From positions 768,001 through 832,000 of the forward strand of contig OZ242374.1 in NCBI GenBank assembly GCA_965209055.1: a stretch of 64,000 nt of DNA, in the 5' to 3' direction. Positions 19,250-48,799 of this stretch are shown piece by piece; position 1 is the first letter of the stretch; every line of letters begins with the position of its first letter. The notes beneath the pieces were generated by a model, which worked only from the letters and a program-made list of their open reading frames with translations, had not been told where the DNA came from and searched no databases. Source of the stretch: Acidobacteriota bacterium. GTDB taxonomy: Bacteria > Acidobacteriota > UBA6911 > RPQK01 > JAJDTT01. The position numbers were made by a program, and so were the translations under genes.

Positions 19250-19372
19250 TCCCGCAGGGAGAATTGAGACGGGAGCGACCCCCCCAGGGGGTGTTGCGCA
19301 AATGTGAATTGCGCAACGCCCCCGCGCCCGCACCGGGCAGCAAAAAGGGGGGGTCGCTCCCGTCCACCTCCG
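19250..19372 (+). ncRNA. Conserved structured non-coding motif, copy 1 (RNA or ssDNA)
   Basis: GACGGGAGCGACCCCCC...GGGGGGTCGCTCCCGTC stem enclosing two hairpins; three more copies at 46.8, 47.6 and 48.5 kb with covariation. Confidence 0.55.
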
Positions 19373-19769
19373 ATTTCCCCGAGCGGCCACCCTGTGGCCG
19401 GCAATATGGCCGTAACTGATTGAGACGACAAAGGATCAGGAAAGCGGTTTTGTGAATCACCGGGACTGCTTTTTGTGAATCCACCCCCCGTGTCCCATTC
19501 ACACTCCCGGATCGGGCGCGAGACCCTCTTTTCGCCCACCCGAAACAAGTCGCCGTAAACCTTTGCGACTGCCAAGTGCGGAACTGTCTCGGCGACCGTC
19601 CCGCAGCGTTCGCAATACTGCTCACCTGGCCCAACCTGTTAGTCTCGGCCTCCATGTGTCCATCCTGCGAGCCGGCTCGGTGGAGGACGAACAATTGTCG
19701 GTACAGTCCGTTACCAGGGATGCTCCACTGACTCGGCCAAGGCTGCATTGAAGAGGGAGGAGCGCGACC

Positions 19770-20009
19770 GTGAGGGGACCGAACGGAGGGGTTCAAGTAG
19801 TCTTCTCCGGGGGAGAGTTTGCAATCTACCGGGCGGAGTCGGTGAACTGGGACCGGCGGACCGGAACATTGACCTTGGAGCATTCCGGCCGATCCTCCGT
19901 GTTCGAGCATTGGGGCGCGAGCCTCCAGGTCATCGCCTGGCGGTGGGTTGATGGGTCGATTCAGGACCGGACCTGGAGAGTGAAGACCGAATACGGCGGG
20001 CGCCTCTAA
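19770..20009 (+). CDS. Hypothetical protein (79 aa)
   Basis: GGGAGGAG RBS before GTG; protein-like composition. Confidence 0.4.
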   Translation: MRGPNGGVQVVFSGGEFAIYRAESVNWDRRTGTLTLEHSGRSSVFEHWGASLQVIAWRWVDGSIQDRTWRVKTEYGGRL

Positions 20010-20216
20010 GGCACGATAAGTTGATCTTATTGGACCCTGTGCCGTCCTAGAGTGGCTTGGGCAGCTTCTCTCGGACCACGTTACCGGATGGCTCAGGGCG
20101 GATCCCCGCCCCCGGGAGAACCGGAGAAACCCGCTTCTTTCCCTCAGGATGTCCATTAATTTCAGTGAACGGACCTCCTTGGTGGCTCCCCCTTCCGAAT
20201 CTCTGAGCGTGGGACT

Positions 20217-20732
20217 CTAAGGAGTTGCGGGAGCTTTGTAGAGCACGGTGTCCTCGGTTTCCGTCGCGGCATCGACAGCGATCCCTAGGCCGACTCCAAT
20301 TCCTGTTAAAAGAGCACCGAGTATCAACCCCTGAAAGGCGGTATCGGTCTTTGTTGACTCTTCAACTGTGGCAATTCCAATCAAGGTCAGTCCACCGCCG
20401 ACTGCGGCTCCAACAGCGGCTCCTTTCCATGCTCCGTCTCCCAACCCATCCTTGGAAGGAAGGTTAACTGTCTGGATGTCCGTTTTCGGAATCACTGCAC
20501 GGCCGGCGGGGTTCAGGAGTTCCAGGGCTGACGCCGACAGGCCTCGGAATTGGCCGTGGATTCGATCCCCGTTTTTGAGTTCCACCGTGATGGATGATGC
20601 CATTTCCAAGGCGGAGACCTTCTCCCAGCGGCCGGGGATCACCTCCGCCCGTGCTGGCATGGAGGCCAATCCGGCAAGAATCAAGGCAAGTAATCGAATC
20701 CGGCATGTCTTCATCGTTTGGGTTTTCTTCAT
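20217..20732 (-). CDS. Exported protein with glycine-zipper-like hydrophobic segments
   Basis: AGGAGGT RBS, signal peptide, GAWKGAAVGAAVGGG and GALLTGIGVGLG segments. Confidence 0.7.
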   Translation of the reverse strand: MKKTQTMKTCRIRLLALILAGLASMPARAEVIPGRWEKVSALEMASSITVELKNGDRIHGQFRGLSASALELLNPAGRAVIPKTDIQTVNLPSKDGLGDGAWKGAAVGAAVGGGLTLIGIATVEESTKTDTAFQGLILGALLTGIGVGLGIAVDAATETEDTVLYKAPATP

Positions 20733-21422
20733 GGCACCTCCTTCTACCTTGGAGTAACATCGCTTCTTGTTAGCGACTCCTCATCAGAAAATGTGATTTT
20801 TTCGTCGGAAGTGGCTCACCGAGGCGAGCAGACGGTGATCGATTCCAGGTAGTCCCCGACGAAGAACGGCATGGAGCCGCCAGGTGGGGAACAGCGAGTC
20901 GATTTTCAGGATCTGGCTATGCTGCCTGTATGTTGCCTGTTCAGCACGTCAAATATTGGCAGTCAAGCACTATACCGATTGGGCGAAGAACCCGGTAAAT
21001 AAATGAAAACGTTAATGTTCGGTAGTCTTTGACTTTCGAACAGTTGGGACTGTTAGTCCCCCCGTCTTCCCTCTTCCTCGTCGCTGCGGGGATAGGAAAA
21101 CCCCCGCTACCAGCGACTGGGAAGTTGCCATTCCCCGGATCTCGAAGCTCGCCGGCTCCACCAGGGGTCGGCTCCTGAACGCCGACGCACCCTTTTCCCC
21201 TTCCATGGAAACAGTCCTGCGGGGCCCAGACAGCGATGGCCGCCACCACGCCGCCCCGTCACCAGAGCACGGCGCTCGCCCGGCTCGTCACACAGCGCTT
21301 GGTGTATCAATACCGGCATTCAAGCCCATCACGCCCACTGAATCTTCCATCCGGAGAACTGCTGAGCCCACACGGTTTGCTCGGACCGTTGGACGGTATG
21401 ATATTGCTTGCATGGGACTCTG

Positions 21423-24440: not shown

Positions 24441-24753
24441 TTGCGAGACGGAGCCATGGATCCGTCCCGGATCCGGGACTCACCGCAACTTCCACGGACC
24501 CGATCTTCAAGACCGTCTGTGATCGCTTGCCCGAGAGTGGTCCCGACTTGGCCACTCAGGCCACGTTGTGCCGGCTGGAGAACGGCGTCCAGCGCTCGGA
24601 GCTCGGGTTCGGGAAACGACCCGCTGCATCTGGATCCACTTGAGCTCAGCCGACTCCGACCAGAAGGCTGCCCCCCCGGAACCCACGCACCAAGGCCTGC
24701 GATCCCGGCAAAAATCGAGGATCTCTGTCAGGTTTGTGAATCATCGCGGCTAG

Positions 24754-25659: not shown

Positions 25660-25732
25660 AAGGAACTCCGTCCTGGAGGAGAGACCGGCGAGCGGATCCC
25701 GGTCTGAATGGACTGGTTTGAATCACAATCAC

Positions 25733-26554: not shown

Positions 26555-26574
26555 TCCGTAATGGATCGTCACTA

Positions 26575-26598
26575 TAATGATATTGAAATTCATTTTCA
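26575..26598. promoter_or_regulatory. Fur-family box-like operator
   Basis: AT-rich TAATGATATTGAAATTCATTTTCA; 7-1-7 repeat TGAAAAT-G-AATTTCA 30 bp upstream of the methyltransferase start. Confidence 0.5.
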
Positions 26599-26984
26599 CT
26601 AGTGGATGGGAATTCCTGTCGTCAGCCTGACGCCGTGTCCAGTGGCCGAGGTCGTAGGTTGGAGGCGAGGATTCCCGGCTACGGACCCTGCGGGCCAGGA
26701 TCCGAGCCCACTGGAAGACGCCGTCACGGGAGCTTTGTTCACGGAGGAGATCATCGAGGTCGCCACGTCGGACGGGGGCTATGTCGAGTATCATTTCGAT
26801 GACCCGGCGGTGGAAGATCTGGTCACCTCGGGTTTGCTCGAGCCCCACGCTCTGGCACTGGACTTGGACAGCGTCATCGAGCGCGCGCAGATGGCTAATG
26901 TTGACGTTCGTTAGGTTTTGACGGCGGGACAGCCAGGACTGTTCGTCCCCCACTCGTCTTTGTTCCTAGGTGATTCAGGAAAGT

Positions 26985-27020: not shown

Positions 27021-27030
27021 TGGTCGGCGG

Positions 27031-33709: not shown

Positions 33710-34557
33710 TTGTCCGATCTCTCTTCCTTGGCCAGGAGGGGGGACATTCCTGTCCCCCTGTCTTCTCTTTTGCGGTCAGGAAGCGTACAGGGGGGACTGC
33801 CGTCCCCACCACGGAAAGGATCTATTAAGTATCTGATAATAAAGGAGTTATGATCTATACTCCCGAGTGGGTTACGCCATTGCATCCCACCTTCTAAACG
33901 GGATTCCATTCGATCCTATTGGAGGTCCGTGGACTCCATGGACAGTTTCGCGCCTCGACTCCCAGGTTTCAAGAGCCTGCGCGCTCCGGGAATTGGGGGC
34001 GTCCATGCGGAGCCGACAGGGTCCGTTTGGCCAGGAGTTCCGGAAACGGGCCACCGATCCCGGCCATGAGAAGGAAACCCTGAGCTATTGGCAACCCTGT
34101 GCCAGCTGCCTTGGCCTCCGCGCAATGCGCGTTCCCCAGCACTGCGAGCGCTGAGGAACGGTCGCCGAGACTCTGTTGTGCTGGATGGAGTCCCAGCCCC
34201 ACGTCCGGTGTGGACGGGACATCCGCATGGTCACTGTGTGAGCGTTGCCGTCGCCAGATGGCGGCCGCGCGCTATCGGGAACGCGCCGATCGACGAGACG
34301 GGGAACTACGGCTCTATTGAGGGCCGGGGGGTGGCCATGACCCCTTAGCCAGGGATTTTTTAGTGCCAAAACACATTTCGCTCGAAACTGATCATCACAC
34401 TCTTTTCCGCGACTACTTAGTGGATCACCCCATCCAAGTCACGATCCGGAAGGGAGCAACCTGGATCGCAACAATCCTGGAGATCTCTCACCGGGATGGT
34501 GATTTCATCCTAGCCCGCGAATCAGCGAACGGATAGACTAGAGGGCAGGAGAAATAA

Positions 34558-34848
34558 ATGGCTCCAGACCTCGCCCCGTGGATCACTCCCGCCGTCGTCG
34601 TTGCGGTTCTACTCTACATGCACCGCTCTATCCGTCGGGATATGACTCAGATGGAAACGCGGTTGCGCCAAGACATGAAGGAAATGGAGTCTCGGTTCGA
34701 GACCCGGATGGACCGGATGGAGTCGCGGCTACGCGAGGACATGGAGCGCCTAGACGGGCGTGTCGCTCGGCTTGAACACGGCCAAGCCAAGCTCGAAGGG
34801 CTCTTAGAGGGCTTGCGCGAGGCCATCACCCGCCAAAACGTCGCTTGA
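34558..34848 (+). CDS. Small membrane-anchored coiled-coil protein
   Basis: AGGAG RBS, N-terminal transmembrane segment, repeated ME(S/T)R units, LEGLLEGLR end. Confidence 0.7.
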   Translation: MAPDLAPWITPAVVVAVLLYMHRSIRRDMTQMETRLRQDMKEMESRFETRMDRMESRLREDMERLDGRVARLEHGQAKLEGLLEGLREAITRQNVA

Positions 34849-34927
34849 GCGGCACGGTCCTGCACAAAAGGCTTCTACACCGGGTGATTCCCGAGTAATC
34901 AGCGGGCGGAAACCAACGGACTGACTG

Positions 34928-35368
34928 GTGAGCGACATCTTCGAGCGTGCCAAGCGAAGCGAGATCATGTCACGGATCCGCGGACGCGACACCAAGCCCG
35001 AATTGGTAGTGCGTCGGATCGCCCACAGGCTCGGATTCCGCTTCAGGCTCCACCGTAAGGACCTTCCCGGCAGCCCGGATATCGTATTTCCACGGTATCG
35101 GGCCATCATAATGGTGCATGGATGCTTCTGGCACCGCCATTCCGGCTGCAAGTACGCCTACACCCCGAAGACGCGAGTTCAGTTCTGGCGGAATAAGTTC
35201 GAAGGCAACGTCGTCCGGGACAGGCGGAACGAACTGGCGTTGTCTGAACGCGGCTGGAGGACGATGGTGATCTGGGAGTGCGAATCCAAGGACCACCAAG
35301 CCGTGGCTGAGCGAATTGAATCTTTTCTGCGGGAATCTACCCCGGATATGGACGGATCGACTCAGTAA
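34928..35368 (+). CDS. vsr: Very short patch repair endonuclease
   Basis: RSEIMSRIRGRDTKPEL, LPGSPDIVF, VHGCFWHRH, VIWEC. Confidence 0.95.
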   Translation: MSDIFERAKRSEIMSRIRGRDTKPELVVRRIAHRLGFRFRLHRKDLPGSPDIVFPRYRAIIMVHGCFWHRHSGCKYAYTPKTRVQFWRNKFEGNVVRDRRNELALSERGWRTMVIWECESKDHQAVAERIESFLRESTPDMDGSTQ

Positions 35369-36411
35369 ACGGGCGAGCCGTCACCCGTTCGTGGGAGACA
35401 TTTCTCGCCGAAACCCTCTGGAACGCAGTTTTGCCAGCGCGCGGAGTACAACGAGCGATTGCCTATCTGTAGGCGTCCGGCGGGGAACACCAGCCGCCAC
35501 CGTGAGAACTCCGATCTCGGTAGGCGTCAGCAGTCCCTGCTCGCGGCCCCACGCGAGAGCGTGCGCCCAGAAGTCACCACCCTCGTTCAGCACCGCGATC
35601 TGGGCTTCCATGCCGTTCAGTTGGCGTTGCTCACGTCGGGCGCTCAGGGCTGCACTTCGCTGATCTTCTGCTGAAATCAGCGCGTCATCCAGTTCGGCAG
35701 GCCATCGCACAGGGATTCTGCTGGCACGGTCCCAACAGGCTTGCTTCTTGGCCCACTCCGTGACGTTGCGCATCTCTTCGGGTGGATTGGTCAGTATATG
35801 GTTGACTCGTTCCGCCACGACCGCGATGGTGCGCTTAAGCTCTGGACCCGGTGCCTGTCGATGCCAGATGCCCTCGAAATCGACGGTCTGGCCGATCTCT
35901 TTCACATGATGGCCTATTCGGGCGATTGTGTACGCGACAATGTTCGCGCGGAACCCGCCTTGGTACCACGGTTGGGCCGAGACGATGCGTTCGGTTGCCT
36001 TGAACACTATCGCCTTGGCGATAGCCTCCCGATACCAAGCCTCGTTGAAGTCGTTTGATACCCTCTTCCACGCCTGCCCGATGCGACGGGCGAAGGCTGC
36101 GAAGTTCTTCTGCGCGCCTTGGCTTACCTCGTGCGGTCTTCCCCCCCACACATTCAGGAACTTGGCGAGGTCGGTCTTTGTGAACCGCTGGCTACGCGGA
36201 TACTCAATGTCGAATTTCCTTCGTTGAGCGGTGGTCTTGTAGGCCCGGGCATCCGCGTACTGGCCGCGTGCCCGCTCGTAGAACCACTTGCTTTCCTGAA
36301 AGGTCCCGTCCGGCGACGGGGCGTACAGCCTTCGGGAGAAGTTCTCGACCCTGATGTGGAACGGGTGGTTGGCGAAGAAGTCGGAAGCCATCACACGGTT
36401 CTGGCTATTAG

Positions 36412-37601
36412 GGAAGGTCTGATTAAGTCGAGTCAGCGTTCTGCACGATAATCCCTTCATCATCACTGCGTGGGGGGAAAGACGATGTCGCAACGGACGT
36501 TCGCAGATCTGGAATACGACGCCAAGAAGCGGGTGACCCGTCGGGAGAAGTTTCTGGTCCGCATGGACGGGTTGATTCCGTGGGAGCAGTTGGAAGCCCG
36601 GATTGAGCCGTTTTACCCGAAAGCGGGACGGGGCCGGCGTCCCTACCCGCTCTCGGCGATGCTGCGGATCCACTGCGTGCAGTTGTTTTACAACCTGAGC
36701 GATCCGGGGATGGAGGATCTGCTTTACGAGGTGGAGTCGGTGCGGCGGTTCGTGGGTCTGAAGCTCACAGGGCCGCTGCCGGACGAGACGACGATTCTGA
36801 AGTTCCGTCATCGGCTGGAGGAGCATGGTCTGGGGGAGGCGCTGTTCGAGGAGATCGGTTCTCACCTGCAGCGTCAAGGCCTGCGGCTGAGCCGGGGGAC
36901 GATCGTGGACGCGAGTATCCTGGCGGCGCCTTCCTCGACGAAAAACAAGGATCGGGCGCGGGATCCGGAGATGCACCAGACGAAAAAGGGAAAACAGTGG
37001 TATTTCGGAATGAAGGCCCACCTGGGGGTGGACGCCCAGACGGGGGTGGCGCACACGGTGGTGACGGCTCCGGCCAACGAGCATGACGTGACGCGGGCCT
37101 CCGAATTGCTGCACGGCTCGGAGTCGCAAGTTTGGGGGGATTCCGGATACCAGGGAGTGCAGAAGCGGTCGGAGAATCGAGATCGGCCGGTGGATTGGCA
37201 GGTGATGATGAAGCCCGGGAAGCGTTGGCAGCTGTCGCCGGAGAGTGAGGCGGCGTTGGCCGAGCGGCGTAAGGCATCGGTACGGGCGAAGGCAGAACAT
37301 GTGTTCGGGTACCTGAAACGGCATTTCGGCTACGCCAAGGTGCGCTACCGCGGGCTGGCGAAAAACACCCAACGGATCTATCTGCTGGTGGGATTCGCCA
37401 ATCTGATGATCGCCGAGCGCTCCGGTGTGACCGCCTGATCGGAATGCGGCACGGCTGTGTTTGAGGCTGGGGAAACCGTCTCGCAATCGCTTGGTCAAGA
37501 CCAATTCAGGGTTGCAAATCCCAGGTTAGAGCGTCTGGATCCGAAAAAGGGAGGGATACAAGGTCTGTTTCGCCCCATATGAGGACTTAATCAGACCTTC
37601 C
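36412..37601 (+). mobile_element. IS5-family insertion sequence
   Basis: 18-bp inverted repeats GGAAGGTCTGATTAAGTC; TTAG target duplication (36408-36411, 37602-37605). Confidence 0.95.
36470..37438 (+). CDS. IS5-family transposase
   Basis: PDETTILKFRH, IVDAS, WYFGMKAH, GDSGYQG, VRAKAEHVF, VRYRGLAKN. Confidence 0.95.
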   Translation: MGGKTMSQRTFADLEYDAKKRVTRREKFLVRMDGLIPWEQLEARIEPFYPKAGRGRRPYPLSAMLRIHCVQLFYNLSDPGMEDLLYEVESVRRFVGLKLTGPLPDETTILKFRHRLEEHGLGEALFEEIGSHLQRQGLRLSRGTIVDASILAAPSSTKNKDRARDPEMHQTKKGKQWYFGMKAHLGVDAQTGVAHTVVTAPANEHDVTRASELLHGSESQVWGDSGYQGVQKRSENRDRPVDWQVMMKPGKRWQLSPESEAALAERRKASVRAKAEHVFGYLKRHFGYAKVRYRGLAKNTQRIYLLVGFANLMIAERSGVTA

Positions 37602-38624
37602 TTAGCATATTCCGATATCTTTGGAACAATCTCTGTTGCCCGATCGGAGTCCACCACGGAGAGCTTCATCTGCACGAAGATCTGGGAAAGATCCTCGCCT
37701 TTCCGCATTGCCGAGTGGATTGACGCAGTCGTCTGCCCGCCGTTTACGATCTGGAAGTTCGTCATCCGCTGTAGCGATAGCCGACCGCGCTCGTTGCTGA
37801 TATCGACCTGCTGGGCAGTGGCGGTAATGCCGTTATTGTACGCGAAGAACATCGTGGGCTCGTGCGCCAATGTATCCCGGATGCCCCGATTCACCTTGCT
37901 GCGGGCTTGGAGGAATACGCGGACATTCTGCTCCAGGAGCCTGGGACCCCAACGATCATAGATCTCGGAAAGGACCGAACCCGGGATAACGCTCAAATAG
38001 GACTCGTGAGCCCCTGCAATGTGCTGCGCGGGAAGCACGGCGATGGCCCCCCCGAAGTCGTTGGCGAGATCAATCTCCATGACTTCCGGTTCGCCGCTAG
38101 CGTCAGCGCGATGGAGCCGCCGCAGGTCCCAAACGCTGTAAGTGACCCGCTTGCCCTCCAAGGTTCTCGCCGGCCGGCCATCGACTCGTTCGCTGAGTTC
38201 CCGGTTGCTCACCACCACCAACCGCAACTTGCTGACGCTCGGCCATCGGTACGCGACCATGTCTGCGAGCCCGAACGCAGGACTCGTCTCTTCCAGAGCA
38301 TTCCGCCATTTGTCGTTCATCGCGTGAGTAACGAATCTCTCCATGCGCCGAAAGATCGCGTCCATCTCGCTACCGACAAGGCGCCCGCTGCGAGGCTCCG
38401 CGTTGAAATCCAGGCCGATCAAGCTCAGGGTACCGGCGGAATCAACGGGGTCACCGCCTGAGCCATCGACGCGGATTCCGCGCGTGGGGTGCCAGTACGG
38501 CGCCCGATCAGCGGTGTCGAGGTCGCCCGCTTCCACGAGGTAGGCGCATGCCTTGTCGAAAAACACGTCCTCCCGGAACTGGCGGTCCGCATCAGCTTCC
38601 GCGAGCACATCCTGCCTGAGGGCG

Positions 38625-39644
38625 TCAGCGAACTCGCGTATCGTCACCACCGTCTCCGGAAAGGCTGTTGGCCACAGCCGCCGCGTCTACACGGAATTCT
38701 TCGCACTCCGCGAGTGCGACTCGGTAACCCACCTGCGTCACCCCGGCGGGGAGCATTCGTGGCGTGATTCTAGGAAAGCCGGCGACGACCCCATAGAAGG
38801 AAGTGTTTCCGATGACCCATCGCCGGTCAGTATAGTCGTCCTCACAATCGTATCCGACCGCCCATAATCGCTCCTCGAAATCCCCACGGACGGCCATGTC
38901 GCTGGCCTCGATCAGCTGCCTAAATCGATCCACCACGTCAGTGACGGTGACAGCGCCTGCTACGTCGCCACGGTCCTCAGCGATCTCGATCACGTGCAGG
39001 AATATGGGTGTTGCGTGCGTCGAGTCTAGCTGATCCGCTGAAGCGATTCGGAGGGTGGACGCCAAGGGTGCGTGTGCCTTGCATTCCACTCCCGTAATGC
39101 CGATCTCGAAGTCCCTCTGCGCTCCAAGCGGCCCCACCCAGCTACGCACGCCTTGTCCGACTCCGATTACAGGCACAACATGCTGCTCAAGGAAAGCGAG
39201 TTCCCCGATTAACCCCTTCTGTTCCTCCACAGTGAGCCGCCCGTCTCTCCCTCCCTTGAGGAGCCGGTGCCAGCGCCACGTTCGCATGATACATGTGTCA
39301 AGGGCCTCTTGCCCCGTTTCGGCCGCTCTTACGGCATCCACGATATCGATGCAAAACCGATGGAAGATGTCCCGGTATTGGACTTCCGCCAACCGGAGGA
39401 CAAGCAACTCTCGATGCCCTTCCTCGTCCGGCTGTCTCTCGATCCGAAGGCCCCGTAGGGTCGGCCACCGATGCTGCGACCGGAGTCCCAATTCGTGTGT
39501 CACGATCAACAGGTAATGCCGCCGCCGGTCGACTGCCCAGTAGAGTCCCCACTGCGTCGATCCCACACCGGCAATTCTCATTGCGCTGAACCCTATCGGC
39601 TCAGGTGTGGCTAGATCTCTCCAGGGGTTGTCACTCACTGTCAT
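38625..39644 (-). CDS. PD-(D/E)XK motif protein (DUF4420, MzaD-like)
   Basis: RWHRLL, EQKGLIGEL, WVGP..DF..VECK, IASADQLD, FPRI. Confidence 0.85.
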   Translation of the reverse strand: MTVSDNPWRDLATPEPIGFSAMRIAGVGSTQWGLYWAVDRRRHYLLIVTHELGLRSQHRWPTLRGLRIERQPDEEGHRELLVLRLAEVQYRDIFHRFCIDIVDAVRAAETGQEALDTCIMRTWRWHRLLKGGRDGRLTVEEQKGLIGELAFLEQHVVPVIGVGQGVRSWVGPLGAQRDFEIGITGVECKAHAPLASTLRIASADQLDSTHATPIFLHVIEIAEDRGDVAGAVTVTDVVDRFRQLIEASDMAVRGDFEERLWAVGYDCEDDYTDRRWVIGNTSFYGVVAGFPRITPRMLPAGVTQVGYRVALAECEEFRVDAAAVANSLSGDGGDDTRVR

Positions 39645-42336
39645 CTTCGTCCCAATCATCGTCGCCAAAGTGGTCCCGGAACCAGATTTCGTTCACCACG
39701 TACTCCACAGTCTCTTCTGGACCACTCGTCTTAGGGAAGCTGATGCTCCAAGCCACCACGGGGGTCTCTTCGCTAAAGTCCTTCTCTCTACTTCCGATAG
39801 CCAGCAGGTGAATGATCAGCAACGGTCGCTCGCGGATCTCCCGGTAGATTCGATCCGGATAATTCCAAGTGCTCTTGTCTCCGCGGCCGTCGCTCTCCTT
39901 TTTTGTCCTCCATCCCGCCTCTGCCGTTGCGCGCTGGAATTCAGATAGGCCCACGCGCTCCACGCCACGGCTCGCAACTCTACGTTTCCGCGCAAAGCTG
40001 ACGGTGCGAACGTCACTTCTAGATCCCGGCGCCCTTCTCTGGCAGATAACTTCAAGACCGGGCAGTTGATATACCAGCGATCCATGCATCTTTTTCTTGA
40101 TGCCAGCGAACAGCACGTCCCACCTCGCAAGCTCTGTGGCGCGGCTTGCTATGTGTTTCCTCACAGGATCCGTCTGCGTCAACGGCGATTTCGGATGGTT
40201 CTTGTACCTCACCAGAAACGCGTCGACTATCTCCACGGGTAGGTCGCGCACCAAGTGTCCTTCGGGCACATCTTGACCACGAGCTCCTCCACCATCAGAG
40301 ATCATGGCCGTCACCAGTTCCCCAACCGCCCGAAGGTTCACCTCCAGTGATGATGGATCTCTGTGCAGCACCGTTGTCTCTACAAACCTGTTCGCGAGCC
40401 CAATCTTGACTCTGTGCGTAAACCCAGTACCCATCTTGTTTCGAGCGGTTACCATGAGCGAGTCCGGATGACTACGCACCTTCAAACCGAACTCCCGTGG
40501 TGTCGCTCTAGCAATCTCCATCTGAACAAGCTCTTCTCGCAGCTCTTCGATGGACTCCGCAATATGTTCGTACCATCCGCGCGCCTCATCGGGCATCCAG
40601 ACGCGGCACAGATCGTCATAGTCATCCCGATAGCCGAACCATCGGCCCATTTGAAAGAGCGTGTCATACATCATCGAGCGGCGAAGCACGTAACTCACCG
40701 ACAGTCCTTCCAGCGTCAAACCGCGTGACAGCGAAAATCCCCCCACGGCGATAACCGTCCATCCCGAGTCTTGATACTCGGAATACATCAAGGAGTCGGG
40801 CGATTTGCTGTTTATCTCAGCAACCCGTATCGCGCCGACGACCTCGACCAAGCGGGGTTGGACCTGATCCCAGGGGACACTCGCCGAGTCGGCATACTGC
40901 TCCTCAAACGTCTGGCGCAGAGCCCGGATCTCGGGGTCACGCACCGCTTCATGCTCCGGTCGCCCTCCGTTGACTCGAATGCTTGCGGCCACTCCATCTA
41001 CGAAAGCGTGGATCTCATTGCGAATCTGCCGTTGAACCGACGTGAAGCGAGACACGTTGACGAGCATGGAATTGTGGACACTGCGCTGCCCGCGAACCAT
41101 TCTGATCGCCTTCGCCAAGAGGAAAGTGCGCACCGCTTCTCGCAGACTGCTCGGCAGACGGGTTACCTTGTGATCGATCTTGTGAGACATCGGAAGCAGG
41201 TCGCGATGGTCGTCGATCGCTTGAATCACCTGTGCTCGCCGGTCCGAAAAGACATCTTCTGCACCAAAGTAGTTCGAGGGTGCATTCAGGGACACAATAA
41301 AGTCGCGTGGAAACAGATCTTGTCCGACCAGCGAATTGTCGTCATCCGGATCAATAAGAATGTTCGCAAACGGTGTGGCGGTGTATCCGACGTAGGCGCT
41401 CCGCTCAAACAAGCTGAGCAACACCCGTATCTGACGGTTGATCGTCGATACGTTGTCCACATGGCGCTGGATGTTTATCGACGCGTTGTCAGCCTCGTCG
41501 TCGATCAGGAGCATTGGTTCCGAGATGGCATTCGCGTGCAGATGATAAGCGTTGTGCGTAGTCAGCCACTCGATGAGATTCCCGAGTATGTTTGTTTCCT
41601 TCTTTATCACCAACAGAACAGGCCTTCGCAGATCCTTTAATGGGATTCCGATCTGACTAGCTGCCAACTTGTTGAAGTCACTAACGGCGGTTGTAAACGT
41701 GATGGGCTTGCGATGCAATCCGTAGCGGCCAACCCCGATGGGCTCAAAGCCGGAGGGACCTAAGCTCCTGCCGGTGTCGTAACCGACGAAGGCCTCGTCG
41801 AGGCGCTCTTGCGTCTGATTGCGTAATCTGTTTTGTACCCCCGCGATGACGATTATTACGCGATATCCGGCATCCGCCGCCTTAGTGGCTACGCCAATGT
41901 AGTTTCCAGTCTTGCCTGATTGGACGTGCCCCATGACCATCCCCCGACGGTCCCATGACTCGGTTTTGCCAGGATCTTCCAGGTATCCGACGATCCTGTC
42001 GGTGTCCTTGTCGATCTCAGCGACTACCTGCGGCGGGAAGCCCTTCCGGTGAACAAGAAAATCCCGGTACCGATTCCAATAGTGCCAGTCTACGCTAGGC
42101 TTTCGTTCGTCGAGCCAGGGCTTGAAGGGTCGCGATAGTGCCAGCGCAGGTTTGAGCAGTATTCCAAAGGTTTCCTCTAACTTAAGGGCGAGACCCTCCG
42201 CTTCGTCGGTGGTTACAGTGGGACAGGCTGGAAGAACCTTGCCAATCAGTTCCCGGATTCGTCCGGGCGTGGGGGCGTCCTTCTCGTCTCCGACTAGGTG
42301 CCACACCAGCCGACGAAGGGTGGTCAAGTCACTCAT
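39631..42336 (-). CDS. Z1-domain SF2 helicase/endonuclease (MzaC-like)
   Basis: GHVQSGKT, IDDEADNAS, YVGYTATPFAN, LSRGLTLEGL, DTLFQMGRWFGYR. Confidence 0.92.
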   Translation of the reverse strand: MSDLTTLRRLVWHLVGDEKDAPTPGRIRELIGKVLPACPTVTTDEAEGLALKLEETFGILLKPALALSRPFKPWLDERKPSVDWHYWNRYRDFLVHRKGFPPQVVAEIDKDTDRIVGYLEDPGKTESWDRRGMVMGHVQSGKTGNYIGVATKAADAGYRVIIVIAGVQNRLRNQTQERLDEAFVGYDTGRSLGPSGFEPIGVGRYGLHRKPITFTTAVSDFNKLAASQIGIPLKDLRRPVLLVIKKETNILGNLIEWLTTHNAYHLHANAISEPMLLIDDEADNASINIQRHVDNVSTINRQIRVLLSLFERSAYVGYTATPFANILIDPDDDNSLVGQDLFPRDFIVSLNAPSNYFGAEDVFSDRRAQVIQAIDDHRDLLPMSHKIDHKVTRLPSSLREAVRTFLLAKAIRMVRGQRSVHNSMLVNVSRFTSVQRQIRNEIHAFVDGVAASIRVNGGRPEHEAVRDPEIRALRQTFEEQYADSASVPWDQVQPRLVEVVGAIRVAEINSKSPDSLMYSEYQDSGWTVIAVGGFSLSRGLTLEGLSVSYVLRRSMMYDTLFQMGRWFGYRDDYDDLCRVWMPDEARGWYEHIAESIEELREELVQMEIARATPREFGLKVRSHPDSLMVTARNKMGTGFTHRVKIGLANRFVETTVLHRDPSSLEVNLRAVGELVTAMISDGGGARGQDVPEGHLVRDLPVEIVDAFLVRYKNHPKSPLTQTDPVRKHIASRATELARWDVLFAGIKKKMHGSLVYQLPGLEVICQRRAPGSRSDVRTVSFARKRRVASRGVERVGLSEFQRATAEAGWRTKKESDGRGDKSTWNYPDRIYREIRERPLLIIHLLAIGSREKDFSEETPVVAWSISFPKTSGPEETVEYVVNEIWFRDHFGDDDWDEDDSE

Positions 42337-43810
42337 CGTGGTCTCCGAGCACGTCTATGATGATCGGTTCCGTCTGCCGCCACTGGAAACTGAACGGCTC
42401 GGCCGATCGCATCCACTCCTTGATGGCTTGATGGGACAGACCGCGCTCTTTCAGAACTCCACACATAGTCGACACCACAAGACGCAGATCACGGATCGAC
42501 AACGGTGTGGCACGGACAGCCTCGGGGTGCGCGCTGACGTCCTGGTGAAGGGACTCAACTGGCAGCGCCGCTGCCACCAAGCGAAGAACGCGGTCGTATT
42601 GCGCTCCCAATGTTGGCGAAAGCCCTTCCCTGAGTGCTTTGATTGCCGGATAGTCGGTGGCGATGTCATAAGATATGCGGCTCTTGTTCTGTCGCCGAAT
42701 CCAAACCGGGAGACGATTGCTCGAAGCTTGTCGGGTGCCCCGACCCCGGTAGGTGCGCCGGGACCCTTCAACCATCCGCTCAACGATCTTCGCTAGGCGC
42801 TTGCGGACGGCAGGCGGGGGCTGCGCAGATGCCTTCTTGACGTCGATCTTCCATTCCGCGTCCATCGTATTCGGAATGTCGATTCCGATGCGAGCCAGCT
42901 TCGTCAGTTCTTGTTTTCGGGTAAGACGAAACCATGTACCGTGCACTATGAGGCGTCGGTTGCGGTAAAGGTAGAACCCCTGGTTACTGACATAGCCCTC
43001 AGGCCCAGCATACCGCTTCCATTCGGCAGTCGACACCTTGTCATGGTGAGGCAGAGTAACAGGGTGTATTCGAATCTCGCGGCCTCCAAGCCTCATTCTC
43101 TCTATCGGGTGATGCTGAGTCGCAGGATGGTTGGAGTGGAACGGATCGAAGGGCTCCAGTAGGTTGTCGTTCATCGACAAGCGAATCTTATGACGACCGG
43201 CCAAGAAACGATGAAACACGAACCTCAGGTGCCTTGCAGCCTCGGCCAACTGGCGCACCAAGTCGCTCCTCCCGGATGCCTCGACAAGGCGGTCGAGCTT
43301 TTCCCATACAACGAGTGTTCCGTCCGCCCGCAGACACCGCGACCAGCGTACTTCATCAACATCGCCGGGGATCTCGACCAGCCATCGATCGTTAGCGACG
43401 ACTGAATCGAGGTCCCAGCGCGCGCAGGAGATTTCGCCCTGATGTTGCGTTACGACCGTGACGCGTCGGCACTGCGAGAAAGATGCGGTCTTCAGGCCGA
43501 GACCAAATCGGCCGAGGTCGGCGTCGTCTCGTGCTTCGCGGGGGCTTCGGGTGCCCGGCCGCATTGCTTCACGCAACTGGCCCCAACTCATGCCACATCC
43601 GTTGTCCAGCACACCGATCGCCGGACGCTCGGCGTGAGTGTCTGCCAATATCTGAATCTTGCGTGCTCTGGCAGTGATTGAGTTGTCGATGACATCGGCA
43701 AGTGCGGTCTTCAGAGAGTAGCCCATGTCCCGCAGGCTCTCGATGAGGGCGGCTGGACTGGGCGCGAGCTCCAGTTCGAGCTCATGCTGTGGAGATGCCG
43801 TCTTGCTCAT
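42329..43810 (-). CDS. MORC/MutL-like GHKL ATPase (MzaB-like)
   Basis: ALADVIDNSI, DNGCGM, DLGRFGLGLKTASFS, QGFYLYRNRRLI. Confidence 0.92.
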   Translation of the reverse strand: MSKTASPQHELELELAPSPAALIESLRDMGYSLKTALADVIDNSITARARKIQILADTHAERPAIGVLDNGCGMSWGQLREAMRPGTRSPREARDDADLGRFGLGLKTASFSQCRRVTVVTQHQGEISCARWDLDSVVANDRWLVEIPGDVDEVRWSRCLRADGTLVVWEKLDRLVEASGRSDLVRQLAEAARHLRFVFHRFLAGRHKIRLSMNDNLLEPFDPFHSNHPATQHHPIERMRLGGREIRIHPVTLPHHDKVSTAEWKRYAGPEGYVSNQGFYLYRNRRLIVHGTWFRLTRKQELTKLARIGIDIPNTMDAEWKIDVKKASAQPPPAVRKRLAKIVERMVEGSRRTYRGRGTRQASSNRLPVWIRRQNKSRISYDIATDYPAIKALREGLSPTLGAQYDRVLRLVAAALPVESLHQDVSAHPEAVRATPLSIRDLRLVVSTMCGVLKERGLSHQAIKEWMRSAEPFSFQWRQTEPIIIDVLGDHDE

Positions 43811-45447
43811 GTGACCGCAGCCACGAGGGCGCCCGAAGCTGCCTGTTCGGGATATCGTACGGAGTCGTCGTGTGCGGGTCCACTGAACGTGCGAGTCTTG
43901 GTGCGCTCATACTCTCCGATCACATCGGCCACGCATCTCGCGATTTGTAGCGCCAAGTAGGGCGGTACGGCGTTCCCAACCTGAACGTACTGCCGAGTCC
44001 TGTCCCCCATGAAAAAGTAGTCGTCCGGGAAGGTTTGGAGCCGGGCAGCCTCACGGACGGTAAGGCTGCGACACTGTGTCGGGTCGGGATGAATGAAATA
44101 GTGGCCGTCCTTGGACATGTGGCTGGTGACCGTGCTCGAAGGACGATCACCGACTTGGACCCGGAAACGGTCGGCGAACTTCCCGGTTCCCCAGTTCGCA
44201 TGGTTTGGGGCCAGAATCTCTGGGAAGTCGGAAGCTTTCGGCGAGACTCCCTTGGCTTTCGCAAATGCGCTCGCGAACAGATACCGCTCTATATCGGCAG
44301 GCATATGCCGTCTCGTCTCGTTGTTAGGTAGTTGCGTCACCCGGGGGTCCCGTATCCAAGTGCGGAGAGGATCGGGGCAAGCCATCTCTGTGCCGCCCGG
44401 CGTGTTACCGTACTCGGGCACCGACCCCGTAACTGCGTCCCGCGTTTCGAGGATTTCGCTGCGGAATCGCGACATCTGATCCGAGGTCATGCGCGGCATC
44501 GGAAGGTCCCCAAGTCGCTTGCACGCTGCCACGACGACATCGCGCCATGCTTCAGAGTTGTCGGCGCGGCTGATTCGGCTGCGAAGCCGCGGCATCTGAC
44601 CGATGACATCTTTCACAGGGACTTGATGATCACTTTTCTCTAAGCGGAGGAGGTCACCCACCGGCAGGACCTTCGCGATGTCGCTCCGTACACAGACCAC
44701 GATGACTCGATGCCGGGCTTGTGGAACACCGTGCTCGTCAGCACGCACCAGGAAATCACTGGGTCTCCGGTCGTCCTTCCAGAGTCCACTGTCTGGTCCA
44801 GCGACCGTGTAGAGTCGATAGCTATCGGTCCCTGTGGCGTGGCGCAGACTCTTCAGGACCTTCTCGATGACCAGATCGTCACCAAGGCGAGCCGAGAGCA
44901 TCCCCTTAACGTTCTCCATAACGGCTACGGCAGGCCTGAGCGCGGCCAAGATCCTCACGTACTCGAAATACAGCGATTGCCGTGTGTCCTTCGCGGGATC
45001 GTAGTTCGCGTTACCTACATTCCTAGCCCTTCCGACGAGCGAGTACGACTGACACGGAGGGCCTCCGAGGAGCACGGCTTCGGGTCCCTGCCGTTCCCGT
45101 ATGCGGTGAATCCGCTTGTCAACCTCCTTGGTGGCACCCGGAGTCCCGAGTTCCAATCGCTGCGTCTCGTCGGCTGCTTCGGCCCACTGCTTCGGGTAGC
45201 TCCGTTGCCAGTCGGGTGCTCGGATGGCACCGCGATTCAGAAAGCTGTGGTATTCGGAAGGGTAATCTTGGCCGAACTTTCTCAGGAAAGCCCTCATGAG
45301 CAGCGTCTTGTGAGCCGACCGCTCCATCTCCACCGAGAGTGCGACCTCGAATCGCACCCGGCTTCGTCCGCCCCGGCACCTAGCGAACCCTTCGGCCAGC
45401 CCTCCAGGACCCGAAAAGAGGTCAACGACCGGGACTGCCTTGCTCAA
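43807..45447 (-). CDS. dcm: DNA (cytosine-5)-methyltransferase
   Basis: DLFSGPGG, GGPPCQ, MENVKG, GVPQARHR, LTVREAARLQTFPD, QVGNAVPP; TTG start after GAGGA. Confidence 0.95.
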   Translation of the reverse strand: MSKAVPVVDLFSGPGGLAEGFARCRGGRSRVRFEVALSVEMERSAHKTLLMRAFLRKFGQDYPSEYHSFLNRGAIRAPDWQRSYPKQWAEAADETQRLELGTPGATKEVDKRIHRIRERQGPEAVLLGGPPCQSYSLVGRARNVGNANYDPAKDTRQSLYFEYVRILAALRPAVAVMENVKGMLSARLGDDLVIEKVLKSLRHATGTDSYRLYTVAGPDSGLWKDDRRPSDFLVRADEHGVPQARHRVIVVCVRSDIAKVLPVGDLLRLEKSDHQVPVKDVIGQMPRLRSRISRADNSEAWRDVVVAACKRLGDLPMPRMTSDQMSRFRSEILETRDAVTGSVPEYGNTPGGTEMACPDPLRTWIRDPRVTQLPNNETRRHMPADIERYLFASAFAKAKGVSPKASDFPEILAPNHANWGTGKFADRFRVQVGDRPSSTVTSHMSKDGHYFIHPDPTQCRSLTVREAARLQTFPDDYFFMGDRTRQYVQVGNAVPPYLALQIARCVADVIGEYERTKTRTFSGPAHDDSVRYPEQAASGALVAAVT

Positions 45448-45627
45448 GGCCTTTCCTCGACCGCAAAAGACTCGCCCGAACGCGCTAGATCGGGCACCTC
45501 GCCGCTCCACGCGGCAGACTCCAATGGTCGCTTCAAGGTAACTCCACAGCTGATCTGGCGCCCCGAGATAGTCCCGCTTGGCGGGGCTCCCAGGACTGCC
45601 CAGCCCTGCCATCGGTCTTGAGTTCCG

Positions 45628-45879
45628 TTAGCGCAAACGCCATCGCTTGGTATCCGCATCTTGGGTCACGATTCCATCCGACTCCAGTAGCGCGAGCATC
45701 GTTCGAGATATGTGTCCCTCGTGTCCGGCGTGTCCATCGTAGATGCCCAGTCTGCGCCCAATATCCACGTTCCGTAGTCCTTGCGCCGTGTCCCGTTCCC
45801 GGAGGAGCATCACGATTGCCGCTTTCATGTCGGCGACCGCCTTCTGAGCAATACGATAAGCCTCGTCTACTCGATCCAT
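45628..45879 (-). CDS. Small winged-helix DNA-binding protein
   Basis: AGGAGG RBS; GLRNVDIGRRLGI...LALLESDGIV..WRL pattern. Confidence 0.6.
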   Translation of the reverse strand: MDRVDEAYRIAQKAVADMKAAIVMLLRERDTAQGLRNVDIGRRLGIYDGHAGHEGHISRTMLALLESDGIVTQDADTKRWRLR

Positions 45880-45989
45880 TCGTCCTCCTGTGCTAAGGGG
45901 TGCCACATCGGAAAGCCGATCCCGGTGGTGTCGAGGATCCGATCTGCAACGGAGCTACCCGGCATATTGCCGTGCTCCGCCACCCGCCC

Positions 45990-46200
45990 CCAAACAAATC
46001 CCTCGGCCAGCCCTCCTGGACCCGAGAAGAGACCGACGACCGTGACCGCCTTGTTCACAGACTGTCCTCGACCGCGATGGACTCGGCCACACGCGCGTGA
46101 TCGAGCATGACGTCTCTCCGGGTGGGAAATTTCGATGGTCGCTTCAAGGTAACTCCACAGCGGCTTGGGGGACCGAGCACGTCCCGCTTCGTGGGAGGAT
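45990..46200 (-). pseudogene. Duplicate of the dcm leader and first codons
   Basis: NKAVTVVGLFSGPGGLAEGF; ATGGTCGCTTCAAGGTAACTCCACAGC shared with ~45523-45550. Confidence 0.7.
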
Positions 46201-46795
46201 ATCGAAGGAATGGACTACCTGTCCATGGACCCGTGTCTGTTGGGGCGCGGCCCGGAACCTCCGCTGCAATTGTCCTCTCGGGCCGCCAGCAGTCGCGCTG
46301 GACTCCCGCCGGGCCGTACTCGCCTCAGCCGGTCCCGGCTACGATACCTCGACCACGCTCTGCTCATGGCGTGCCGCACACGGGCGACTCTGGAAAGCGG
46401 TGACGTAGAGGGCCGGGCCGTCGCGGTGGCATAGTGGCGCGCGCCCCGCAGGCAACTCGATCGGGCTTGGATCAACATCAGCCGCCCTTCGACTCTCCGG
46501 CTAGATTGAAACCAATTGCAGATTGAATCCGTAGAATGTTGCCTTTCGGGCCAGGCCCTGGACCGGGCGCTGGGCCTGGAGCGGACCCCGCCGCCGACCT
46601 CCACCACACGTTCCGAGTTCAGACCTTCCGGGGTTCGGTCCCGGTCCTCGTCCAAGGGGACGCCGAAAATCCACCTGCACCTGCGGACCCCAGTGGCACG
46701 TGTCGCCTGTGGTCATCCCTGGATCACGCACCATGTGTCGTGAACGGACGCCTTGCAGAACCCTAACAGGTCTTCCGGATTCTTCTCCGGGTGCT

Positions 46796-46920
46796 TCCCG
46801 ACAGGGATATTTTGGAAGGGAGCGACCCCCCCAGGGGGTGTGGCGCAGATGTAAATTGCGCCACACCCCCGCGCCCGCACCGGGCAGGAAAAAGGGGGGG
46901 TCGCTCCCTTCCACCTCCGC
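46796..46920 (+). ncRNA. Structured non-coding motif, copy 2
   Basis: GGAAGGGAGCGACC...GGTCGCTCCCTTCC stem. Confidence 0.5.
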
Positions 46921-47552
46921 TTTCCCCGTGCGGGCACGGCGAAGCCGGGAATGTGGCCGCAACTGCATGAGCGACAAAGAGATCGGGGAAATCGCGTGTG
47001 TAAGTAGGCAGACTCCCATGATGTAAGTTGCCCCCTTTGTCTCCCTTACACTCCTGGATCGACACGGTGTGTTGCTCTGTACCCGTCAAAATGAGGTCCC
47101 CGGCAAGCGTGTCGTCCGGCACGAGAGCGTCGCGAACGTCGTCGTCGATCTCCACGCCGGCGGCGCGATCTTCCGCCCATGGTCGCAACTCGATGGCCGG
47201 TTTCAGCGAGGCCGTGACGCTGCCATAGCCGTCGAATCGGCCCGCGTTCCTTGCAGCACACTCCGCATTTCTGGAAGAAGATTGCCTGACACGAAGGCCA
47301 ATGGAGGTCTGGCTCGGCCAGCACGAGGGCGACACCGGGAGCCAAGGAGTGCCAGACCTAGTTCCTGAACGGCGATCAGATCCAGTACGGGATTGTCTCC
47401 AGGCCCGGAACAAGATCAATTTCGATCCGCCAGATCACTCCGCCCAGCCAGCGGGGCCGTCCACAGACGCTTGTACGAGCACTGGCCCGCGGCGGCTTGC
47501 ACACCGCGCCGTTGCGCGGTGCACCGCCACGCGCTGAGGCGATCCAAACGGC

Positions 47553-47677
47553 TTCCCGCAGGGATCAATGGGACGGGAGCGACCCCCCGAGGCGATGGCA
47601 CGGAGAGTGCCCATCAGCCTGCCCCGCTTTGCCGATCCGGGAGGCAAAAAAGGGGGGTCGCTCCCGTCCACCTCCGC
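47553..47677 (+). ncRNA. Structured non-coding motif, copy 3 (divergent inner hairpin)
   Basis: GGACGGGAGCGACC...GGTCGCTCCCGTCC stem. Confidence 0.5.
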
Positions 47678-47914
47678 TTTCCCCGAGCGGCACCGCCGAG
47701 CCGCGATCCGATCCGGAACTCGAACGGGGACAGCAGTTTAGAGAAAAGTAGCCGTGCACGTCGAAGTGGCCTCCTGGCGCACATGCCTCCCGTTGTCTCC
47801 TGTGCACTCCCCGGGCGGCACGGAACCCCACTTTCCGGCGGTCCAGTTCGAGCTCGCGGACGCCGGCTCGAACGCCAGATTACGAAGCCTGCCGGGAGGA
47901 CGACCACGGCGGAT

Positions 47915-48132
47915 CAACGGAGCCGGCCGGCTACCCGTTCCGGACTCTCGCCGGCCAGATAGTTCGCCCAGTCCACCATGAGCCGACACCGGCGCTCGAA
48001 CAGGTCCGTCCGCCGATACGCCGCCTCGACCTTGTTCTTCACCACCTGCGCCAGCGCCGCCTCGACGACCTTGCGCGGATGGTCCGTCTCCTCCTCTGCC
48101 CGGTCCCGGCACGACGACCGGAACCCGTGCGC
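47915..48132 (-). pseudogene. C-terminal remnant of a second P4-type integrase
   Basis: HGFRSSCRD..ETDHPRKVVEAALAQVVKNKVEAAYRRTDLFERR; paralog of 48800-49020. Confidence 0.85.
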
Positions 48133-48437
48133 ACGGCCACGATGTCATTCTGGTGGAGTCGCCGGCGCAGCCGCATTTCTGTGGACTCGGCACCGCGTGG
48201 CGCAAGGATCCGGGACACCGAAAGGAATCAGTGGGCAGAGACGGCGACGCTTGGAGCCAAATCGTCCCCCGCCTGGATCACCGCACGCAGCATCGGCTCG
48301 TGAACCGCGATCCGATCCGATCCGGGATTGTCTCCAAGTCCGGGAAGGGGATCCTATCCGGTGCGCCAGATCACTGCCGCCGCTCCACCCGGAACGAGGG
48401 CCACGTTTCTCCACTTCATAGGGCGTTTCTTCCACCT

Positions 48438-48562
48438 TCCCGTCAGGGATCAATTGGATGGGAGCGACCCCCCCAGGGGGTGTGGCGCAAATGTGAATGG
48501 CGCCACACCCCCGCGCCCGCACCGGGCAGGAAAAAGGGGGGGTCGCTCCCATCCACCTCCGC
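48438..48562 (+). ncRNA. Structured non-coding motif, copy 4
   Basis: GGATGGGAGCGACC...GGTCGCTCCCATCC; homology to copy 1 continues to ~48700. Confidence 0.5.
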
Positions 48563-48799
48563 TTTCCCCGTGCGGGCGCGGCGAAGCCGGGAAAGTGGCC
48601 GTAACTGACTGAAAGGAAAAAAGATCGGGAAAGCGGAGTTGTGAATCGCCGGGACCGCTTTTTGTGAATCCGCCCCGCATGTCCCGTTCACACTCCCGTA
48701 CGGGCACGACACGACACTTTTCAGCGGTCAAAACCGACCTCCCGGATGCCAACTCGGACGCCAGATCCCGAAGCCGGCCGGGAGGACCACCACGGCGGC

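Follow-up and report, generated by a model that had tools for sequence, protein, structure and literature searches.

A structured noncoding unit shared by a conjugative element and dozens of integrase islands in an acidobacterial genome as a candidate origin of transfer

The second origin of transfer (oriT2) of plasmids pAD1 and pAM373, in work attributed to Francia and Clewell in 2002 and to Francia et al. in 2013, is said to combine a large conserved inverted repeat with short plasmid-specific direct repeats and to lie between the relaxase gene and a TraG-like gene; TraX, the MOBC relaxase of these plasmids, is reportedly PD-(D/E)XK-like and not HUH. A PD-(D/E)XK-like domain is present in MOBC relaxases (PMC5714925), integrative mobilizable elements (IMEs) carry oriTs that resemble those of their helpers (PMC6414798), and islands that combine an integrase with an oriT alone ("iOriT") are frequent, in many cases exceed their helpers in number, and have defense genes near the oriT (Ares-Arroyo et al., bioRxiv 10.64898/2026.01.13.699239). 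A 64,000-nt stretch of an Acidobacteriota bacterium (GCA_965209055.1, contig OZ242374.1, positions 768,001 to 832,000, forward strand; the window) was analyzed here. A preliminary description of it had reported four copies of a covarying three-way-junction motif in two integrative elements and had offered a noncoding RNA (ncRNA) or a single-stranded DNA signal as candidates. The motif belongs to a repeated unit of ~278 bp, found in dozens of integrase islands, which most likely represents a new family of oriTs whose candidate relaxase has no name. The reading of the unit as the oriT region of an acidobacterial integrative and conjugative element (ICE) family, copied into relaxase-less hitchhiker islands, was given a probability of roughly 0.55.

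The native place of the unit was identified in the genome that contains the window (G000, 6.08 Mb), where a unit at position 1832116 lies 56 nt upstream of the sole full-length type IV coupling protein (T4CP) gene. This gene belongs to a type IV secretion system (T4SS) cluster with genes for VirB2/TrbC, VirB4, VirB9/CagX, VirB6/TrbL, VirB8, a CHC2-Toprim-helicase (primase-helicase) protein, and ArdC, as well as a VirB5/TrbJ-like open reading frame (ORF) with a weak sub-threshold match. Read along the transcribed strand, VirB8 comes first, followed by a 310-amino-acid gene without a name (ORF310), the unit, and T4CP. A covariance model of D1, the 125-nt core of the unit, was built from 14 copies and searched in 76 genomes of the order, and native loci were compared in 12 genomes. 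A T4CP gene followed D1 in 12/12 native loci, the position by the coupling-protein gene that is expected of a cis-acting oriT, and both ORF310 and VirB8 were found on the other side of D1 in 11 of the 12. The T4CP proteins at these loci were 88% identical in one genome of the same genus and 39 to 60% identical in the rest. With the T4CP frame opening 40 to 105 nt beyond the small hairpin at the head of the unit (the mini-hairpin) and ORF310 on the opposite side, the unit therefore corresponds to approximately the whole ORF310-T4CP spacer, which is ~280 to 340 bp long at native loci. The proposal in the preliminary description of an oriT or single-stranded DNA signal used in trans fits this context, a position immediately 5' to the T4CP gene in a T4SS cluster, from which we infer the function.

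The four copies reported earlier represent the window correctly and the genome poorly: a pattern search for the two D1 stem arms found 69 sites in G000, 63 of them distinct, and blastn of the unit against this genome gave 62 high-scoring segment pairs. Many of the copies retain pieces of the genes that flank the native spacer. An ORF310 C-terminal fragment is kept, in its native position and orientation, by 31 of the 69 units, and a T4CP N-terminal stump is kept by 7 units (including the fourth window copy), in 6 cases at 16 to 24 nt from the unit edge and in 1 case at 158 nt. The island copies are thereby shown to descend from the ICE spacer. A second stem type (GTGAGCG) accompanies a 45%-identical ORF310 paralogue that is full-length at three loci. 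D1 was found in all 8 other genomes of the genus and in 26 of the 76 genomes of the order, from 10 of 32 genera. Both D1 and ORF310 occurred in 25 of these genomes, D1 only in 1, ORF310 only in 1, and neither in 49, a co-occurrence that is no statistical test because the genomes are kin. No match to the unit or to ORF310 was found in a plasmid collection.

The copies are also linked to two families of integrase genes, Int1 and Int2, as had been suggested for examination. G000 contains 16 Int1-family genes and 26 Int2 genes, and for 56 of its 69 units such a gene is no more than 10 kb away; conversely, a unit is present within 10 kb of 16/16 Int1 genes and 23/26 Int2 genes. Genome-wide scatter in the manner of an ordinary repetitive extragenic palindrome (REP) or miniature inverted-repeat transposable element (MITE), which had been named as the observation that would weaken the proposal, is thus matched by the number of copies but not by their ties to two integrase families. 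Two further features were observed around the copies. A family of ORFs of ~60 amino acids with double CPxCG zinc-ribbon motifs starts on the - strand 6 to 40 nt from the 5' edge of many units (e.g., L002 695-1090; G000 2104047 and 3844684), with many copies frameshifted and without a Pfam, NCBIfam, or PHROG match. A second conserved noncoding module, GAGACCGCGCGAGGG-CCCATTC..ATGGGACGCG and then GGCGCCACTGGGGGGTCTGGGG, is common to Int1 islands and Int2 elements (L020 3735-3870; L002 650-790); in L002 it is adjoined by what looks like a tRNA 3'-end fragment (GGTTCGAGCC).

The unit consists of D1, which is only its first 125 nt, and two further domains, D2 and D3. The window copies (c1 to c4) were all present and all on the + strand, and the pairing described for them was recovered in each particular. 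A TCCC-N3/4-GGGA mini-hairpin stands at the head of each copy, followed by an 18-bp perfect stem (GA-N-GGGAGCGACCCCCCC / GGGGGGGTCGCTCCC-N'-TC) whose third pair is C-G, A-T, C-G, and T-A in c1 to c4. Two hairpins, of 13 bp and 5 bp, are enclosed by this outer stem; the inner hairpin switches from TTGCGC/GCGCAA to TGGCGC/GCGCCA, and in c3 it is replaced by another sequence with pairing kept. Covariance-model E values of the window D1 copies were between 1e-19 and 1e-32, and folding z-scores were -8.0 (+ strand) and -6.1 (- strand). The D1 fold is far beyond chance. A reading of D1 as a - strand protein-coding sequence was ruled out because the mini-hairpin loop has 3 or 4 nt and the interior contains indels. 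D2 is a stem (CTCCGCTTTCCCC/GGGGAAAGCGGAG). D3 of the window copies contains a short word in two direct copies and one inverted copy, and across the unit family it has two direct and one or two inverted repeats of 7 to 9 bp whose word varies by lineage (GTGCAC, TGTGAA, ATGTTCCAC, GTGTCCCA, and TGTTAC); the class found in c3 is that of the T4SS-cluster unit in G000. The 18-bp stem, the inner hairpins, and the D3 repeats together provide the inverted and protein-binding-type repeats that are expected of an oriT.

The 5' edge of the unit, at CCTTCC, is sharp to 1 to 2 nt over 31 flank families, as a site-specific breakpoint would be, and no terminal inverted repeats were noticed when the unit ends were read. 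Several atypical copies were also observed. A foreign end (...GGTTTACGGA-N-TTTATAGAAACAGTCC) replaces the first ~10 nt of the mini-hairpin in four or five G000 units (5' ends at 1583530, 1608642, 3165140, 3375002, and 4508896) and looks like a mobile element inserting precisely into the mini-hairpin. So-called class B elements have two D1 copies of different stem type facing each other around an ORF310 fragment, with a standard unit ~0.9 kb away (e.g., L001 4971-5107 and L005 3603-3738), and the D1 at G000 479904 is a hybrid with one arm of each stem type; these inverted pairs and the hybrid point to recombination within or between D1 copies.

Selection on structure, as claimed for the motif, was supported by compensatory change. 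When 45 distinct copies from several families were aligned by means of the covariance model, 27 of 40 pairs had double changes, compared to 13.6 ± 2.0 in 500 shuffles and 13 to 18 when partners were slid by 1 to 3 columns, although the alignment was fitted to the covariance-model structure and its counts lean toward that structure. None of the 500 shuffles reached the observed count, and 91.5% of cells were paired, compared to 81.1% in the shuffles. Single-sequence folds, which are independent of the model alignment, showed that distant genomes retain the stem while GGGAGCG/CGCTCCC becomes GATAGCG/CGCTATC, GTGAGCG/CGCTCAC, or GCGGGAGCG/CGCTCCCGC. The stem core AGCGACCCC/GGGGTCGCT departs from its usual sequence in only a few rows, by single-base mismatches, and both D1 arms share AGCGA as their invariant core.

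The claim that G-T pairs favor the + strand was not borne out. An A-C mismatch on the + strand is a G-T pair on the opposite strand, and the 45-copy alignment, with the mini-hairpin left out, contained 42 G-T and 40 A-C cells. When 90 distinct copies were folded singly, G-T pairs numbered 108 (+ strand) and 122 (- strand), 1-by-1 A-C mismatches numbered 15 (+ strand) and 29 (- strand), and the + strand fold was the more stable in 60 of 90; G-T pairs were rare in these folds (108 versus 3754 Watson-Crick pairs). The model-alignment test is thus symmetric and the single-fold test equivocal. Since wobble pairs favor neither strand, a hairpin or inverted repeat at the DNA level fits better than an RNA of one polarity.

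ORF310 has 3533 homologues, some labeled by their sources as Gemmatimonadota or Gammaproteobacteria, and the few with names are called hypothetical; in the ESM Atlas, it matches only unnamed acidobacterial clusters. The whole protein was modeled with AlphaFold from 8 sequences (predicted local distance difference test [pLDDT] score, 80.5) and the C-terminal 216 residues were modeled separately (pLDDT, 78). The N terminus was modeled as a winged helix (Z of 8 to 9 to MarR/ArsR proteins), which alone was recovered by Foldseek with the whole model. The C-domain model matched NucS (Z, 7.3), SdaI (7.0), AF1548 (6.2), and the nickase N.BspD6I (6.0), with further matches to AgeI, BglII, SgrAI, BstEII, BsoBI, and Can2 (Z range overall, 5.2 to 7.3). 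The highest-Z matches are mostly PD-(D/E)XK nucleases, and a restriction-endonuclease-like C-domain is a lead from the models. ORF310 has conserved D/E/K residues in LSLD, TExEK, and VDPG. The most divergent stretch between the ORF310 proteins of G000 and G003 is the helix-turn-helix at residues 37 to 62 (12 of 26 identical, compared to 73 to 92% elsewhere), and the D3 words of these genomes are GTGCAC and TGTGAA, respectively. That the D3 words and the helix-turn-helix both differ between lineages suggests that ORF310 reads the D3 repeats.

In the proposed mechanism, the winged helix of ORF310 would bind the D3 repeats and so give specificity, and the protein would act on D1, the putative processed structure, as a non-HUH relaxase or relaxosome protein by analogy with MOBC. 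The sharp 5' edge (CCTTCC) may be the nick site, and relaxase-type joining between two origins would yield the shuffled flanks at this edge. The 60-odd other copies, c1 to c4 included, would reside in small islands of the integrase-bounded kind that carry no mating-pore genes; an intact ORF310 gene would be missing from both window elements and from most of the other islands, and the resident conjugative element would transfer the islands in trans via their unit copies, some of which are probably remnants of decayed elements. Such hitchhiking fits the literature, in which IMEs copy a helper oriT and oriT-only islands are frequent. The more specific proposal, that ORF310 founds a new and widespread family of non-HUH relaxases in which a winged helix recognizes D3 and a PD-(D/E)XK-like nuclease without a sequence link to MOBC cuts at or near D1, comes from the structural models and is tentative, and we consider it rather doubtful.

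Several observations weigh against the oriT reading. Relaxase families PF03432, PF03389, PF08751, PF07514, and PF01076 had no match in G000, PF02486 had a single sub-threshold match that lies inside the Dcm gene, and PF03432 had no match in 5 relatives. With six relaxase Pfam families lacking a match above the cut-off in G000, the assignment of ORF310 as the relaxase is therefore a guess. Replic_Relax (PF13814), the family relevant to membership in the MOBC relaxases, likewise had no match in G000, ORF310 included, and ORF310 itself had no Pfam match even at an E value of 10 and no NCBIfam, PHROG, or PDB-sequence match. The Z scores to nuclease folds are at most 7.3, in a range that the comparison tool calls common, so the nuclease fold is a lead and no proof. 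The unit lies downstream of ORF310, whereas an oriT is usually upstream of the relaxase gene; wobble has no bias to one (transferred) strand; and one full T4CP gene stands against 69 units. Finally, the - strand of the unit often precedes a zinc-ribbon ORF (by 6 to 40 nt) or the T4CP gene, with a Shine-Dalgarno-like GGGAAGG in the mini-hairpin, an arrangement that is also compatible with a role as leader or promoter.

The main alternative, which was considered unlikely and could coexist with an oriT, is that the unit is a regulatory region, with a promoter or operator and a structured 5' leader on the - strand and with ORF310 as a winged-helix regulator at D3. In the islands, the unit would then time the zinc-ribbon ORFs and Int2 to activation of the helper element, as a helper-sensing device. 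It is the main rival because T4CP or zinc-ribbon ORFs follow the unit on the - strand and GGGAAGG is a possible ribosome-binding site. The T4CP start lies 40 to 105 nt past the native unit and zinc-ribbon starts lie 6 to 40 nt after many island copies. The - strand order in Int2 elements is unit, small ORF, and Int2, and the D3 repeats are operator-like and covary with the ORF310 helix-turn-helix. However, an operator needs no 18-bp perfect stem with compensatory changes and symmetric wobble, Int1 islands have the unit downstream of the integrase gene without a conserved gene after it, and the next ORF beside class B copies is on the other strand. A search of the units for a sigma-70 promoter or a bidirectional (intrinsic) terminator found no consensus site, a weak objection given that promoters of this phylum may differ.

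Recombination could also have shaped the copies directly, with the unit either a recombination substrate (attC-like, or an oriT for relaxases of the MobK, MpsA, or TcpM type) or a functionless, MITE-like selfish repeat. Tyrosine-recombinase-like relaxases exist, and the oriT of pIGRK has AGCGA motifs (PMC8152469); the same word is the core of both D1 arms. Twenty-five of the 69 units are within 2 kb of an Int1 gene, and the breakpoint that is sharp over 31 flank families, the hybrid of two stem types at G000 479904, and the inverted D1 pairs around ORF310 fragments speak for this reading. This explanation is nonetheless quite improbable. The attachment (att) sites of both integrases were located at the island ends, away from the units, and their cores (TGCCGTCCCC and GGGACTGTTAGTCC) are unrelated; native loci in 12 genomes have no tyrosine recombinase beside the unit; and the copies have no terminal inverted repeats that were seen and track integrases without scatter.

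A stand-alone structured ncRNA on either strand, of the P4 CI or C4 immunity-like type put forward in the preliminary description, would account for the strong predicted folds of both strands and the compensatory changes, but it is very improbable, with G-T and A-C cells symmetric (42 versus 40), G-T pairs few among the Watson-Crick pairs, no conserved promoter or terminator found in the units, a + strand 5' flank that changes between 31 families and therefore holds no conserved upstream promoter for a + strand RNA, and no Rfam match at the gathering score. The Rfam search that had been recommended gave only group II intron matches at the gathering score in the window, and below the cut-off only generic long-hairpin noise was found (best match, 31.9 bits versus a cut-off of 53.1 bits).

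The window copies of the unit lie, as first described, in two different integrative elements, c1 in an element with a Xer-like integrase and c2 to c4 in a P4-type island, both bounded by direct repeats (Table 1). The scanned ORFs of the two elements included neither a relaxase nor a T4SS gene.

Table 1. Features of the two integrative elements and their unit copies, in positions of the 64,000-nt window
Feature	Positions	Strand	Remarks
Left direct repeat GGGACTGTTAGTCC of Int2 element	15006..15019	+	Element 15006-21059, 6.05 kb
Int2, Xer-like tyrosine recombinase, second exon	15069..16165	-	First 10 nt of gene at 18078-18087
Group II intron with reverse-transcriptase ORF	16166..18077	-	Inserted in Int2 codon 4
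Unit copy c1	19247..19525	+	D1 19247-19371, then D2 and D3 with TGTGAAT repeats; internal to Int2 element
Right direct repeat GGGACTGTTAGTCC of Int2 element	21046..21059	+	Other element end
Left direct repeat TGCCGTCCCC of Int1 island	33798..33807	+	Island 33798-50193, 16.4 kb
ORF310-like fragment beside c2	46232..46402	+	Residues 144-199, 44% identity
Unit copy c2	46793..47056	+	D1 46793-46918; D3 repeats of TGTAAGT class
Unit copy c3	47551..47813	+	D1 47551-47675, alternative inner hairpin; D3 repeats of GTGCAC class
C-terminal fragment of older Int1 copy	47917..48129	-	Residues 341-411; between c3 and c4
T4CP gene stump	48270..48419	-	Residues 1-50, 64% identity; 16 nt from c4 5' edge
Unit copy c4	48435..48711	+	D1 48435-48560; D3 with TGTGAAT repeats; abuts Int1 3' end
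Int1, P4-type tyrosine integrase	48800..50035	-	Arm-DNA-bind_3, Phage_int_M, Phage_integrase
Right direct repeat TGCCGTCCCC of Int1 island	50184..50193	+	GGATYTCT repeats between repeat and start of int

The ends of the Int1 island were established from an empty site in a relative (G001), in which a BNR-repeat gene is directly followed by the homologue of the window from 33758 downward; the TGCCGTCCCC 10-mer is present there as its reverse complement within a small hairpin, GGGGGGAC-GGCA-GTCCCCCC. This site places the island ends at TGCCGTCCCC, 1.5 to 15 kb from the units, so the units are internal, just 3' of the integrase gene, and the reading of the unit as the Int1 att site was ruled out. 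A TnpB/IscB guide-RNA reading was dropped because the neighboring ORF is a P4-type integrase. The island carries Vsr, AIPR (cut by an insertion sequence), DUF4420, Z1, a HATPase_c_3 protein, and a Dcm methylase, after which come c2, c3, the Int1 and T4CP stumps, c4, and the integrase at the right end. This cargo (34928-45612) is a defense cluster with lower GC content at third codon positions, in which AIPR is split by a DDE transposase (36470-37438).

A segmental duplication of ~13 to 25 kb relates G000 178279-191144 to 796622-821703 (window positions 28622-53703) and includes chromosomal genes for a BNR-repeat protein, a methyltransferase, and PhyH. It takes in the site at which Int1 islands attach, and each of the two copies holds an island there, one larger than the other; a minimal Int1 island of 2.5 kb, consisting of one unit and Int1, is found at the same site in the duplicated region. 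A run of ~30 C with one TA interruption follows the right Int1 repeat (50194-50223) and is only about 7 to 8 C long at the G001 empty site and at the second G000 copy. Synteny of the window flanks was not conserved across the genus, except on the BNR-gene side that yielded the empty site.

The best matches of Int2 were Xer-type models, far below the cut-off, and it scored 60 bits against the integron-integrase model (cut-off, 265 bits). Its gene is interrupted (ATG GGC ATC T / GTGCG...) by the intron, which encodes a reverse transcriptase/maturase ORF. The intron part of the query had 3 matches, including the window copy, and the 75-bp Int2 start region is unsplit in the other copies examined (e.g., G000 2829223-2832214 and L002). 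A sequence that resembles a tRNA 5' half, with acceptor and D arm and reaching as far as the anticodon loop, is present just inside the left repeat at 15020-15046 on the - strand. The Int2 att core (GGGAC-TGTTA-GTCCC) is a small hairpin, as is the Int1 attB in G001; both families therefore seem to target anticodon-arm-like GC hairpins.

If the oriT reading is correct, it would provide a transfer route for islands that seem immobile, with an integrase and without relaxase or pore genes, in Acidobacteriota (here in sponge metagenomes), in which conjugation has barely been studied. An unnamed protein family would be the missing relaxase of a T4SS family that standard MOB typing would call relaxase-less, and an explanation would be at hand for ~60 repeats in each genome that might otherwise be classed as REP-like or as candidate ncRNAs. 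Should ORF310 represent a new relaxase family, a whole class of "relaxase-less" T4SS elements would be conjugative, and G000 would contain one helper and some sixty oriT-only hitchhikers ferrying defense islands among sponge-associated bacteria.

Compared to described repeats, the unit resembles REP/REPIN sequences and MITEs in having dozens of structured copies of ~100 to 300 bp per genome, and differs from them in its link to two integrase families, which holds for 56 of 69 copies, and in the descent of the copies from a single ICE spacer, of whose flanking genes stumps are still attached; neither a RAYT transposase nor terminal inverted repeats nor target duplications were observed. Like integron attC sites, D1 is a long imperfect palindrome in which structure is kept over sequence, with a variable and sometimes branched terminal part, and is found beside tyrosine recombinases at boundaries with shuffled flanks. 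In contrast to attC, the sequence of the stem core is itself conserved, except for single-base mismatches in a few rows, and no extrahelical bases were seen. The integrases belong to the P4 and Xer-like types and not to IntI, and their att sites are separate.

The closest parallels are with known transfer origins. As reported for oriT2 of pAD1 and pAM373, the spacer that separates ORF310 from the T4CP gene contains a large inverted repeat (D1) together with lineage-specific repeats (D3), although the hosts here are Gram-negative-type Acidobacteriota with a VirB-like T4SS, and ORF310, unlike TraX and other MOBC proteins, has no sequence similarity to named families, Replic_Relax included, and only a middling match between modeled folds. 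The host sets the system apart from the iOriT islands as well, with no occurrence of "Acidobacter" in the text of that preprint (bioRxiv 10.64898/2026.01.13.699239). Further differences from these islands are that the unit is a putative oriT, that the helper has no recognized relaxase, and that the copy number is very high, with 69 sites and one full T4CP gene. As in iOriT islands and IMEs, nevertheless, integrase-bounded islands without relaxase or pore genes share one noncoding region with a resident conjugative element, and as in the iOriT islands they outnumber the helper and carry defense genes by the shared region (Dcm/Vsr/Z1/AIPR beside c2).

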